From the IMG/VR virus record IMGVR_UViG_3300030099_006533: a stretch of DNA of 64,000 nucleotides. The stretch is one strand, 5' to 3'. This document shows, one piece after another, positions 22,538 to 35,951 of the stretch (position 1 is its first letter; each line of letters opens with the position of its first letter). The DNA comes from a virus. The position numbers and the translations under genes were made by a program. The notes under the pieces were generated by a model that saw nothing but the letters and a program-made list of their open reading frames with translations, was not told the DNA's origin and did not search any database.

Positions 22538-22715
22538 TGCTGAAGCCATTGACATTGCAGAGGGCATGGTCGAGCCTCAGAGCGAAGAAGAATACTATGC
22601 AGCATGGCAACACCTTATTGATCGCGGGCTTGCGTGGAGTCTGCAAGGATGGTTTGGGAGAACAGCGCACCGACTCATCCTGGCGGGGCATTGTCGCCCA
22701 CCGGATGCTGCTTGA
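22530..22715 (+). CDS. conserved phage hypothetical protein
   Basis: AWQHLIDRGLAWSLQGWFGRTA; stop lies inside a TTGACA box. Confidence 0.65.
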   Translation: MTDAEAIDIAEGMVEPQSEEEYYAAWQHLIDRGLAWSLQGWFGRTAHRLILAGHCRPPDAA

Positions 22716-22765
22716 CAACTTTTTTTCATTTGGGCCTTGACAAACGAACCTGGAGCCATTATATT
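22712..22765 (+). promoter_or_regulatory. multi-box promoter (degenerate middle box)
   Basis: TTGACA 22712, TTTTCA 22723, TTGACA 22737, N17, TATATT 22760. Confidence 0.7.
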
Positions 22766-22782
22766 ATAGGTGGAGGTTAGGA

Positions 22783-23025
22783 ATGACAGACAGACCATCG
22801 AATGTTTCAGGCTCTTCGTCTACCGAAGAGGTCGATGTGCTCACTGCCGAGCTTCGCGCCATGAACTTCGCGAAGAACCTGATGTATAGCACCCAGTTCC
22901 ACGAGATTCTACCATTGATTGAGGAGATTCAGCAGTGCGACGACGATGACCCTAGGCTGTTGCTTATCAATGCTGTGTTGAATGAGGCCCTCGAAACTTT
23001 CCCCCTTGCAGATTGCGACGTATAA
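22783..23025 (+). CDS. hypothetical protein
   Basis: GGAGG RBS, downstream of promoter. Confidence 0.65.
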   Translation: MTDRPSNVSGSSSTEEVDVLTAELRAMNFAKNLMYSTQFHEILPLIEEIQQCDDDDPRLLLINAVLNEALETFPLADCDV

Positions 23026-23301
23026 ATGAAGACTGTTATTGTTATTGACACCGAAGATCCTACCGGCATGGAGAGCACCCGGCTCATCGTGGATCACCTG
23101 ATGAAGACCCACCATAAGATTCCTTATGATAGAAACGATCCGTTTGGCTCTAAGATCCAGGCGATCAAAACTATCCGTGAGTATGTCAGATTCTGCAAGG
23201 AACACTGGCCCGATGACTGGCAGGACGCTATCGGTTCCCTCCGCGCGTCGAAGTCTTATGTTGATTCGCTCACCAATGCTAAGTTCTCAACGAGACTTTG
23301 A
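23026..23301 (+). CDS. hypothetical protein with possible L7/L12 CTD-like motif
   Basis: KIQAIKTIREY...LRASKSYVD. Confidence 0.5.
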   Translation: MKTVIVIDTEDPTGMESTRLIVDHLMKTHHKIPYDRNDPFGSKIQAIKTIREYVRFCKEHWPDDWQDAIGSLRASKSYVDSLTNAKFSTRL

Positions 23302-23528
23302 TGGGAACGCACAGACAAAAGGTAAACTTTGAGATGGGCGAGCTGGTTAGAGTGGTCGATAACACTTTTCAAGAGGGAATGTCGCCCACCCGCGTGGGGG
23401 TTATTACCGGAGTCGGTCAAGACGATTCGGGTTTCCACACAGGGGTGTATGAAGTTCTCTTCGCATCTAGCGAGGGCACACTAAAGATGCAGTTCTGGCA
23501 CAAGTTTTTGGAGAAGGTTGTAGTATGA
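23298..23528 (+). CDS. SH3/KOW-like small protein
   Basis: FEMGELVRVV...VGVIT...YEVLF...FLEKV. Confidence 0.65.
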   Translation: MMGTHRQKVNFEMGELVRVVDNTFQEGMSPTRVGVITGVGQDDSGFHTGVYEVLFASSEGTLKMQFWHKFLEKVVV

Positions 23529-23848
23529 GACAAGTCATCCTTGCATTTATTATCGGATTCACAGTCACCGCATGCACCGAGCGTGCAGTTCGCAATGGCG
23601 GTACTTCCGCACTGGAGCGGCGATGTGAGCCGGTGCTTGCCGAGATTCTACAGATTCAGGATCTGAGGCTGCTCAATAATCACGCCCTGAACCACAAGAG
23701 GGCTGAGGGTGTTCTGACTCCTGACGATGTTGAGTCTTGGAAGGCTGTGGAAGAGGAGCTTGGTTCGCGTGTGAACCATCTTTATAATGTCGCTGACCGT
23801 CGCAAGTGCTTTGATGGTGTCGAGCAAATGTTCTTGACATTCTCTTGA
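23525..23848 (+). CDS. putative lipoprotein
   Basis: Signal-like N-terminus ending VTAC. Confidence 0.6.
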   Translation: MRQVILAFIIGFTVTACTERAVRNGGTSALERRCEPVLAEILQIQDLRLLNNHALNHKRAEGVLTPDDVESWKAVEEELGSRVNHLYNVADRRKCFDGVEQMFLTFS

Positions 23849-23888
23849 CAAAAAAGTTCTTGCAATCCAAAATCCAGCGTGGTATATT
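23834..23888 (+). promoter_or_regulatory. triple-box promoter
   Basis: TTGACA 23834, TTGACA 23845, TTGCAA 23860, N17, TATATT 23883. Confidence 0.85.
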
Positions 23889-23911
23889 ATAGAAGATGAA
23901 AGGAGAGCCCC

Positions 23912-33673: not shown

Positions 33674-33717
33674 GTATATGTAAGGTCGAGGAACGGCCTT
33701 CACGGAGAGAGAATCAC

Positions 33718-34539
33718 ATGCCACGAGTTACCTACCGCACGCGCCTTGCCGACCTTCTCGCGAAGGACTATCTTAGCCAGTCTGACCGCCGGTTCGCACA
33801 GTCGTTGCTCGACCACTACAACCGCAAGAAGTACATGAGCGCCGGTCGCGCTAAGTGCGTCCGTAACCTTGAGGCTCGCTACGCGACCCAGCCGAAGGTC
33901 AACAGTAACCTTCTGGCCGAGTTGCAGGCTCTCAACGGCAAGATCGATGACGGATCTAGCTGGGATGCTGGCTTTGTCGAGTCCCTGATCAGTCAGGTCA
34001 AGTCGGGTCGCGACCTGTCCGAGAAGCAGCAGCAGACTCTGGCAAAGGTAAACTCTCGGTACTCCGCCGAGGCTCTGGCCGCTCTCGATGCGTTCGCCAC
34101 CGAGTACCGTACCAACACCCTGTGGCAGCAGCGGTTCGCCATGATGGTTGACTACTACAAGTCCAACGGGTACTACGGCAACATCACCAGCCGCGTGGTC
34201 GATGGCTTCGTTCCGACGAAGAAGCAGTACGAGGCCATCACCTGCAACAAGTATGCGGTGAAGATCCTGGCAGGCTGGGAGGCCGATGCAAAGTACCCTG
34301 CTGGCTCGATGGTCCTCGTCCGGTCCAGCACTCGCAACAACGCTGCGTGGCGTGCTGCGGGCAACGGTAAGCTGCCCGTGGTCATCGTCGCGGTCAACGC
34401 CGACCGCCCGTCCTCTGCCTGCAAGGGCAACAAGATTTACAAGGTGCTGCCTGTCGGCTGCGCTCAGACCTTCATGGTCGAGGAGCGCGACCTCAAGGCC
34501 CACCGAGCCCCGAAGAAGAAGGTCAAGAAAAGTGCTTGA
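33718..34539 (+). CDS. hypothetical protein, C-terminal SH3-like segment
   Basis: Repeated F..SL..Q...GR.LS.KQ helices; AKYPAGSMVLVR. Confidence 0.75.
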   Translation: MPRVTYRTRLADLLAKDYLSQSDRRFAQSLLDHYNRKKYMSAGRAKCVRNLEARYATQPKVNSNLLAELQALNGKIDDGSSWDAGFVESLISQVKSGRDLSEKQQQTLAKVNSRYSAEALAALDAFATEYRTNTLWQQRFAMMVDYYKSNGYYGNITSRVVDGFVPTKKQYEAITCNKYAVKILAGWEADAKYPAGSMVLVRSSTRNNAAWRAAGNGKLPVVIVAVNADRPSSACKGNKIYKVLPVGCAQTFMVEERDLKAHRAPKKKVKKSA

Positions 34540-34590
34540 CAAACTCTTTACAAAATAACCCTTGATCTTTTCTTCAGCCTCAAGTATACT
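34536..34590 (+). promoter_or_regulatory. triple-box promoter
   Basis: TTGACA 34536, TTTACA 34547, TTGATC 34562, N17, TATACT 34585. Confidence 0.9.
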
Positions 34591-34652
34591 TAGTATGTAA
34601 GGTGAGGGATTGGCCCTCACTGACCACCACGATTCAAGAGAGAGAGAATCAT

Positions 34653-35726
34653 ATGTCCATCGACTTCCGTACCTTCCGCGCCTGCGTCCCTTCCGTCCTC
34701 GCCGCCCGTTTCCCCGTGCTCCTGCGCGGTCGCCATGGCGTTGGCAAGTCCCAGGTGGTCTACCAGACCGCCGCCGATCTCGGCCTCCCCGTGGTCGAGC
34801 GCCGCGCGTCTCAGATGACCGAGGGTGACCTTCTCGGCCTGCCTGACAACCGTGACGTTCAGGTCAACGGTCGCAAGGCCACCACGTTCAACCCGCCTGA
34901 GTGGTTCCTGACCGCTTGCACCGAGCCGGTTGTGCTCTTCCTCGATGAGGTGGACCGCGCGACCACCGAGGTCCGTCAGGGCATCTTTGAGCTTTGCGAC
35001 TCCCGCAAGATCGCAGGCAACACCCTGCACCCTGACACGGTGATCATCGCTGCCGTCAACGGTGGCGAGCACGGCGCTCAGTATCAGGTCGGTGAGATGG
35101 ACCCGGCTGAGCTTGACCGTTACACGGTCTTCGACGTCGAGCCCTCGCACGAGGACTGGCTTGACTGGGCGAAGGACAATGTTGATTCTGTCCTCTGGGA
35201 CTTCATCAATCAGAACCGTCAGCACCTTGAGCACACGGGCGACTTTGAGCCCAACAAGGTCTACCCTTCGCGCCGGTCCTGGGACCGTCTGAACCAGACT
35301 GTGACCCCGATGGGCTGCTTCTCCGAGGGTGGCGACCTCGACATGCTCTTCAACCTGACCACCGCATTCTGTGGCTTTGAGGCTGCTGTTGCAGTGCGCG
35401 ACTTCGTTGCCTCCTACGACCGTCAGGTCACTGTCGAGGACATCCTCGACAACGGTGAGATCGACAAGACCACCGACTGGACCATCAACGAGCACTCCGC
35501 TCTGGTCGAGAAGATGGAGGCCTCCGAGGTCTTCAAGCCGGAGCTTGCTGACGAGCAGATCGTCAACCTTGCTCGGTACTTTGTAACCTTGCCTTCCGAG
35601 GTCGCAATGAAGCTGTGGACCGTGCTCGGTGACGGCGACGTCCAGAACGTCATCCGCACCCATCAGGCCACCACGCCAGAGGGTGTGGTCATCAGTGAGC
35701 ACCTGATCACCATTCTCGGCGGCTAG
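34653..35726 (+). CDS. MoxR-like AAA+ ATPase
   Basis: GRHGVGKS Walker A, LFLDEVDRA Walker B, IIAAVN, MDPAELDRY, PSRRSWD. Confidence 0.9.
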   Translation: MSIDFRTFRACVPSVLAARFPVLLRGRHGVGKSQVVYQTAADLGLPVVERRASQMTEGDLLGLPDNRDVQVNGRKATTFNPPEWFLTACTEPVVLFLDEVDRATTEVRQGIFELCDSRKIAGNTLHPDTVIIAAVNGGEHGAQYQVGEMDPAELDRYTVFDVEPSHEDWLDWAKDNVDSVLWDFINQNRQHLEHTGDFEPNKVYPSRRSWDRLNQTVTPMGCFSEGGDLDMLFNLTTAFCGFEAAVAVRDFVASYDRQVTVEDILDNGEIDKTTDWTINEHSALVEKMEASEVFKPELADEQIVNLARYFVTLPSEVAMKLWTVLGDGDVQNVIRTHQATTPEGVVISEHLITILGG

Positions 35727-35735
35727 TTCGCCAGG

Positions 35736-35806
35736 GGCCCGTCAGGGGGCGTCAGAGGGCTTTCTCTCTCTCTCGCCTACCCTGACACCCCTGACGGCGG
35801 CCCCGC
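35736..35806 (+). repeat. long imperfect GC-rich hairpin with (CT)n loop
   Basis: GGGGCC-CGTCAGGGG..GTCAG / CTGAC..CCCCTGACG..GGCCCC. Confidence 0.6.
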
Positions 35807-35896
35807 CCCTCTACGGGCCTCTGAGAGCCCACAAACAGTATCCTTCGCATCGAGCGACGACCCCGAGAGAGAGCGCGAGTCAAGTGTCAGGATCGC

Positions 35897-35951
35897 TTGA
35901 CAAACTCTTTACAACTTTGCCCTTGATTATCTCGCCAGCCTGAGCTATACT
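35897..35951 (+). promoter_or_regulatory. triple-box promoter
   Basis: TTGACA 35897, TTTACA 35908, TTGATT 35923, N17, TATACT 35946. Confidence 0.9.

Follow-up and report, generated by a model that had tools for sequence, protein, structure and literature searches.

A double-box class of sigma70-type promoters in a clade of uncultured marine T4-related phages

We analysed a 64,000-nucleotide stretch of DNA from an uncultured marine T4-related phage (IMG/VR record IMGVR_UViG_3300030099_006533; hereafter the window, meaning the whole stretch), focusing on 13 promoter cassettes in which two TTKACA boxes (K = G or T) stand at fixed distances upstream of the -35 hexamer. This double-box design is real and is common to a whole clade of uncultured marine T4-related phages, and in a complete relative the boxed promoters form a class separate from the box-less promoters with upstream A-tracts. 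The explanation that we consider best, with a probability of roughly 0.6, is that the 13 sites belong to one discrete, clade-wide class of promoters of the host-sigma70 type, in which a two-box operator replaces the zone of the UP element.

Geometry, conservation and distribution of the boxed promoters

The pattern TTKACA-N5-TTKACA-N9-TTG has exactly 13 matches in the window, all on the + strand, against an expectation of 0.02 from shuffled sequences. These are the same 13 promoters for which an earlier, sequence-only reading had proposed a fixed spacing; all of its coordinates were recovered once its “+11/+15” formula was read as start-to-start distances (taken as literal gaps, it gives 0 matches). 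The class is discrete, because a relaxed 21-base version of the pattern, allowing up to 3 mismatches, returns the same 13 sites and adds none. Each of the 13 cassettes continues into a TATAAT-like -10 hexamer at a 17-bp spacer and is followed, ~17–60 nt from the predicted transcription start, by a strong Shine-Dalgarno sequence and a start codon. With transcription assumed to start 7 nt past the -10, box 1 occupies -61 to -56, box 2 -50 to -45 and the -35 hexamer -35 to -30. A search for private -10 elements at spacers of 16–18 for the 26 boxes of the 13 cassettes found none, the best matches having 2–5 mismatches and at least 3 in 24 of the 26 cases. This agrees with the sequence-only reading, as does the absence of boxes from the sigma70-type promoters at 6267, 8239, 39023, 41545 and 62102 elsewhere in the window, which have A/T-rich tracts upstream.

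Conservation was tabulated in a non-redundant set, with box 1 scored given box 2 and box 2 given box 1. In both boxes T2, A4, C5 and A6 are present in 100% of instances and position 3 varies (G 81–92%, T up to 16%), while the boxes are flanked by C in 77–96% and their spacers are weakly conserved. In promoter numbering this places G at -59 in 92% and C at -57, -51 and -46 in 95–100%, so that the box zone holds base-specific G/C positions rather than the pure A/T tracts of an UP element. The true -35 follows another pattern: TTGA is fixed, the hexamer is typically TTGACt, and A appears at position 6 in 22%; counts are 126 for TTGACT, 47 for TTGACA, 36 for TTGACC and 27 for TTGACG. Because the two patterns differ, the boxes do not appear to be read as sigma region 4 reads a -35.

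The boxes are also rigid in their occurrence and placement. Presence is all-or-none (both boxes in 296 cases, one in 8, none in 96), the period between boxes is 11 in 418 of 514 pairs, and box 2 lies 15 bp from the -35 in 287 cases, 14 bp in 20 and 16 bp in 2. Since this last distance does not compensate for -35/-10 spacers of 16 or 18 bp, the position of the boxes is set with respect to the -35. Orthologous promoters retain the pair while flanks and spacers diverge (42/51 promoters of a VWA protein gene and 13/17 of the gene for a 114-aa protein), variant half-sites such as TTAACA and CTGACA in orthologous promoters still keep ACA, and among the orthologous promoters of a MoxR gene a third box, lying 12 bp farther upstream, is frequent.

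A scan of IMG/VR with the boxes plus TTGA, the -10 being left out of the query, found the design in at least 120 stretches. Among the matches listed there are 64 distinct contigs, several of 160–205 kb, and a TATAAT-like -10 stands at spacer 17 in 187 of 220 unique instances. The complete relatives G001–G004 (185–203 kb) hold 7–10 exact-pattern copies each, on one strand and within a single block of ~10–13 kb. The full composite including the -10, searched in 185,579 prokaryote (bacterial and archaeal) species, gave 3 single matches in one genome each, which is the chance level; the design therefore belongs to the phages and was not taken over from a promoter type of the host. T4-type gp23 is present in five relatives. 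We found no close relatives among deposited phages, and the nearest cultured capsid proteins, those of Microcystis phage Mel-JY01, Rhodothermus RM378 and Flavobacterium phage ‘immuto’, are 35–45% identical. The host was not indicated by GroEL, which was uninformative (45% identity to a Bacteroidales metagenome-assembled genome); the strong Shine-Dalgarno sequences and TTGACA/TATAAT/A-tract promoters argue, without proving it, for a proteobacterium-like host rather than Bacteroidota or picocyanobacteria.

The complete relative G001 (100% complete) shows the two promoter classes side by side. Its ~25 strong box-less promoters are scattered over the genome and have 61% A at -46 to -38, against a background of 30%, while its ~11 boxed promoters are confined to one block, and the 7 of them that pass a stricter scan all have a TG-extended -10. 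Because the box-less promoters are A-rich at the same place, the boxes stand where G001 elsewhere uses A-tracts. In the window, box-less promoters are not A-richer than boxed ones over -46 to -38 (0.50 vs 0.52). The suggestion that the boxes gate the whole early programme was too broad, given the many other sigma70-type promoters of G001 that are box-less with A-rich upstream tracts.

Box pairs also occur away from the composite promoter. In relatives, 64 of 420 pairs have no -10 at the expected place, and many of these lie in conserved arrays; at one locus (L017), a 38-aa membrane peptide has a promoter of its own, with three direct pairs upstream. From these promoter-less arrays it follows that the pair behaves as a modular binding unit. 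Clusters of boxes in mixed orientation adjoin a conserved G/C-rich element in relatives, GGGGG..CCCCCCT(A/C)CCC..GGAATGTATGTC, and at least 2 boxes fall within 150 bp of 27 of its 44 conserved copies. The window has a copy, GGGGTAGTCCTACCCCCCTGGTACCCCCCTACCCGGGATATATGTCTC, at 38876–38925, at the end of a high-GC block and with no boxes there, and G001 is without the element. In relatives, several hundred bases without long open reading frames (ORFs) come after the element, which may serve as an origin, encode an RNA or act as some other control site.

The cassettes and the genes around them

The first seven cassettes each lie shortly before a gene start. Cassette 1 (23834..23888) has two TTGACA boxes, a -35 of TTGCAA, an N17 spacer and a -10 of TATATT, with its gene starting at 23912; cassette 2 (26269..26323) has two TTGACA boxes, a consensus TTGACA as -35 and TATATT, with a gene start at 26347, and the ORF before it stops at the TGA of its box 1. 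Boxes TTGACA and TTTACA precede TTGATC and TATATT in cassette 3 (26859..26913, gene start 26942), whereas both boxes are TTGACA in cassette 4 (27632..27686, gene start 27710), where the -35 is TTGACC and the TATATT is TG-extended. Cassette 5 (29128..29182, gene start 29210) combines TTGACA and TTTACA with TTGACT and TATATT. The next two end in GATAAT: cassette 6 (29722..29776, gene start 29803), with two TTGACA boxes and TTGACT, and cassette 7 (30361..30415, gene start 30441), with two TTTACA boxes and TTGATC.

From cassette 8 to cassette 12 the -35 is TTGATC throughout. Cassette 8 (31117..31171; TTGACA, TTTACA, -10 TATAAT) heads the gene for the 114-aa protein, which is 77% identical in G001; cassette 9 (32100..32154; two TTGACA boxes, TATAAT) has its gene start at 32183, and cassette 10 (32403..32457; TTGACA, TTTACA, TATAAT) at 32502. 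Boxes TTGACA and TTTACA recur in the remaining three, namely cassette 11 (33619..33673, -10 TAGAAT), which heads the gene for a conserved 273-aa protein; cassette 12 (34536..34590, -10 TATACT), which heads the gene for a MoxR-type AAA ATPase, the one whose orthologous promoters often have three boxes; and cassette 13 (35897..35951, -35 TTGATT, -10 TATACT), which heads the gene for a DUF2201 VWA/metallopeptidase-like protein.

Two further features of the sequence-only reading hold on inspection. The site it had called a degenerate fourteenth member, at 22712..22765 on the + strand, has a single TTGACA, which precedes a TTGACA-N17-TATATT promoter by 25 bp instead of 26; its second box has decayed to TTTTCA. 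Extra upstream boxes exist at the three sites it had named, with TTGACA at 26836 (cassette 3) and 29116 (cassette 5) and ATGACA at 32391 (cassette 10), each 12 or 23 bp before box 1 (12 bp for that at 29116); a fourth, at 26848 (cassette 3), is only a weak CTGACT.

All genes of the window lie on the + strand, and they include GroEL, one transfer-messenger RNA (tmRNA) and six tRNAs. The genes headed by cassettes are small orphans together with the MoxR-type ATPase and the DUF2201 VWA protein. About 11 genes of the cluster are found again in relatives, alternating with variable genes, and the cassettes sit at the junctions of conserved and variable genes; the 114-aa protein, for example, occurs in 20 loci and its upstream neighbour in only 2. 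Genes and cassettes abut without a gap, upstream ORFs ending inside the boxes: the TGA within a box is the stop codon of at least five of them (23846, 26270, 29734, 32101 and 34537), that of the 273-aa protein included. An ORF-free gap of ~220 bp lies at 30142–30360, between a gene end and cassette 7. No terminator stem-loop was found adjacent to and before a cassette, and terminator-like sites between 21 and 39 kb number 13, against 13.9 expected.

Directly past the -10, four cassettes share a leader motif, GTAT(A)TGTAAGGTYGAGGAAC (31172–31195, 32458–32480, 33674–33696 and 34591–34612), with a weaker version at 32155–32175; in these four or five cassettes it could be a leader RNA signal added to the promoter. 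The boxed cluster is compositionally distinct, with a GC content of 56–60% at 30000–38000 and of 39–47% over most of the window. A tRNA-Leu(CAA) lies within it at 25136–25221. A one-piece tmRNA, with the tag ANNNDYFEQRLAA, lies at 60183–60514, and five further tRNAs fall in 62149–63979; two box-less sigma70-type promoters, at 62102 and 63696, are inside this downstream tRNA array, the former directly before tRNA-Lys.

Candidate readers of the boxes

The mechanism that we propose starts from a boxed promoter core composed of a TTGAY -35, a 17-bp spacer, often a TGn, and a TATAWT -10, in which the zone of the usual UP element (~-62 to -44) would be replaced by the operator cTTGACA-N4-CTTKACAA. 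A sequence-specific protein would bind the box pair as a head-to-tail dimer on one face of the DNA, as the 11-bp period suggests, and its promoter-proximal subunit may abut sigma region 4 or the C-terminal domain of the alpha subunit (alpha-CTD) at the -35. Some 13 transcription units, namely the small orphans and the MoxR ATPase and VWA pair, would then respond jointly to one factor, since that factor would bind the box pair that they share.

As to what that factor might be, the motif geometry resembles that of OmpR/PhoB-family response regulators, and the position of the boxes appears closest to that of CenR or OmpR rather than PhoB. The Bacillus subtilis PhoP sites are TT(A/T/C)ACA repeats with an 11-bp period (PMC11870197), and 28 of 31 alphaproteobacterial CenR sites, TGA-N8-TGA, abut the -35 on its upstream side and point in the direction of transcription (PMC9275681). 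The family signature that the sequence-only reading had recognised in hexamer direct repeats with an 11-bp period stands, the TTNACA repeats being also co-directional with transcription and abutting the -35; the fit to classical PhoB fails. On these grounds we tentatively favour, slightly, a conserved host regulator of the OmpR/PhoB type as the reader over an unrecognised factor that is phage-encoded or delivered with the virion.

Several observations weigh against the explanation preferred here and its host reader. Six-frame searches of five relatives found no Trans_reg_C domain, and comparison of the cluster proteins with Pfam and PHROGs gave no recognisable DNA-binding domain, the sole match being a weak DksA/TraR-like zinc finger; no box-binding protein was found among the candidates examined. 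The -35/TGn/-10 core is already near consensus, so that an activator is not obviously required, and G predominates at box position 3, a base that the B. subtilis PhoP consensus excludes. The boxed promoters are probably pre-replicative, “early” following from promoter type and gene content. Cassettes are, furthermore, more alike within than between genomes, with the spacer AAC(A/T)C in 7 of the 13 here and rare elsewhere; part of this likeness therefore stems from duplication or gene conversion.

The zinc-finger match belongs to a 64-aa C4 protein (26661–26855) that resembles PHROG 54 weakly (E 0.006) and has a 25-residue match in the box-less sister phage G006. DksA/TraR-like proteins act on RNA polymerase.

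A phage-encoded reader of unrecognised fold, either delivered with the virion or made from box-less promoters, would define a second temporal class, as a MotA-independent ‘middle’ mode or an early shut-off, and we regard it as possible, if doubtful. In its favour, the design is limited to a phage clade and bacterial genomes are without it; two promoter classes coexist within one complete relative; the promoter-free arrays are operator-like and run in both orientations; and the sister phage G006 (97% complete) shares the MoxR/VWA pair, yet has a different cassette and no boxes. Homologues of AsiA and of MotA (MotCF) were not found in five relatives, neither search having had a positive control. 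Against it, no candidate has emerged, and the missing Trans_reg_C domain and the cluster proteins devoid of DNA-binding domains count here as well. The 273-aa protein (33718–34539), basic (isoelectric point 9.8) and the best-conserved cluster protein after the MoxR/VWA pair, recurs in 44 loci of relatives and is absent from box-less G006. Its AlphaFold model (pLDDT 87) combines ~190 helical residues with a C-terminal Tudor/SH3/chromo-like barrel and has no winged helix and no significant match in the PDB; an ESM Atlas search with the 273-aa and a 98-aa protein returned viral hypothetical clusters only. An abundant marine T4-related clade lacking MotA and AsiA may, on this reading, run a second sigma70-dependent class through a dedicated regulator of unrecognised fold, phage-encoded or virion-delivered, that would bind TTNACA pairs head-to-tail beside sigma region 4 and also the arrays by the G/C-rich element, a proposal that we consider just as doubtful. 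In G006 (loci L147–L155), the first 25 kb and last 26 kb contain repeat words of their own, CACCGTGAAGACGG and CCTGCTATTGAATA, in 12–15 copies each, and a GATAG-like word is common to its early-type promoters, upstream of TTGAAC.

The two readers named by the sequence-only reading, host PhoB acting at pho boxes and the sigma4-like 89-aa protein encoded at 2119–2388, are both very improbable. For PhoB speaks the reverse complement of the pair, TGTCAAG-N4-TGTCAAG, which shares a TGTCA core and the 11-bp period with the Escherichia coli pho box (PMC11870197); the orientation is the opposite one, however, the site lies upstream of a -35 that is intact and not replaced, none of five relatives has pstS, and the phoH of G001, ~40 kb in and outside the boxed block, has no boxes. 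The 89-aa protein does have a Sigma70_r4 helix-turn-helix (E 1.7e-10), but it does not co-occur with the boxes: it is rejected as an obligate reader, being absent from the cassette-bearing G001 (at least 8 cassettes) and G005 (92% complete) and present in the cassette-free G006. Its recognition helix, SLSRVKQ, moreover differs at the -35-contacting positions from that of sigma70, which we take to be TRERIRQ.

It is unlikely that the boxes simply strengthen these promoters by being read by RNA polymerase itself, in place of an UP element or as additional docking sites for sigma region 4. The boxes do lie where an UP element would and resemble the -35 consensus in spelling, the variable A/T-rich spacers after them centre near -42 and -53, the usual alpha-CTD sites, and T4 early promoters are known as ‘uber’ UP/-35/TGn/-10 promoters in which further positions are conserved (PMC2988021). 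The fixed, G/C-containing part of the boxes (ACA at 100%, the flanking C) is nevertheless unlike the A-tract UP elements used elsewhere in G001, the boxes and the -35 proper of these promoters differ in their conservation pattern, box pairs also occur promoter-free and inverted, and no bacterial genome uses the composite. More remote still is the idea that the cassettes are kept chiefly as recombination homology, shuffling gene modules in the manner of promoter early stem-loop (PeSL) elements, with boxes that have no reader. PeSLs do behave so (PMC4122927), the cassettes stand at conserved/variable gene junctions, and spacers are more similar within a genome; homogenisation would, however, keep the spacers too, whereas non-redundant and orthologous promoters conserve only the boxes, -35 and -10, there is no upstream stem-loop, and conserved promoter-less arrays exist.

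Relation to known promoter systems and implications

PeSL cassettes and T4 early promoters are the closest known things to the boxed cassettes. The former are known in the T4-type phages RB49/phi1, T4/PST and KVP40/nt-1 (PMC2839356; PMC4122927), and the likeness lies in many near-identical sigma70-type early promoter cassettes that separate small variable ORFs within a hyperplastic region, close with a Shine-Dalgarno sequence and an ATG, and stand at junctions where gene modules differ between relatives. Unlike PeSLs, the boxed cassettes have no stem-loop or terminator before the promoter, upstream ORFs running into the boxes. Where PeSLs are AT-rich ahead of the -35, the boxed cassettes have a pair of invariant TTKACA boxes with fixed spacing, a feature not known from descriptions of PeSLs. 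In T4 early promoters, A-rich tracts resembling UP elements lie at ~-40 to -44 and -52 (PMC2988021, PMC1524935). With them the boxed promoters share predicted recognition by host sigma70, a near-consensus -35/TGn/-10, extra conserved information upstream and small, probably pre-replicative genes; the difference is that in this clade the A-tract type occurs as the box-less class and the boxed class is a second design.

The cassettes have several features in common with OmpR/PhoB-family sites: hexamers repeated directly at an 11-bp period, a co-directional orientation, an A/T-rich spacer, a place directly before the -35 (as for CenR) and an occasional third repeat. They depart from B. subtilis PhoP sites in having two boxes and an intact consensus -35, against four repeats reaching into the -35 region, and in the predominance of G at position 3. 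In the E. coli pho box, CTGTCAT repeats are co-directional, replace the -35 and lie 10 bp upstream of the -10, whereas here the TGTCA core is on the opposite strand and the boxes span -61 to -45; unlike those of a pho regulon, the boxes have no link to phosphate genes. T4 middle promoters resemble the boxed class in forming a second class within one phage, set apart by a box peculiar to the phage ahead of a sigma70 -10 (PMC2988021). The MotA box is single, however, centred at -30, and replaces the -35 (‘sigma appropriation’ by MotA and AsiA), while here the -35 is intact. Our literature search for double upstream TTGACA boxes in phage promoters found no published description, in line with the sequence-only reading, which knew of no phage regulon of such size and geometry.

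How T4-like phages without MotA and AsiA separate their classes of pre-replicative genes is an open question, as is, even in T4, the shut-off of early transcription (PMC2988021), and the boxed clade gives the former a testable cis-code: the two promoter classes of G001 differ by a 20-bp tandem operator, of which each genome has ~10 copies and which dozens of wild genomes preserve. The box pair could serve directly as bait for its regulator, be it of the host or of the phage, and the cassettes mark junctions for the exchange of accessory genes. If a host response regulator reads the boxes, an abundant ocean phage would have a whole block of accessory genes adjusted to the physiology of its host; if the reader is instead a dedicated phage regulator, the boxed promoters would be a new way for T4-like phages to time their gene expression.

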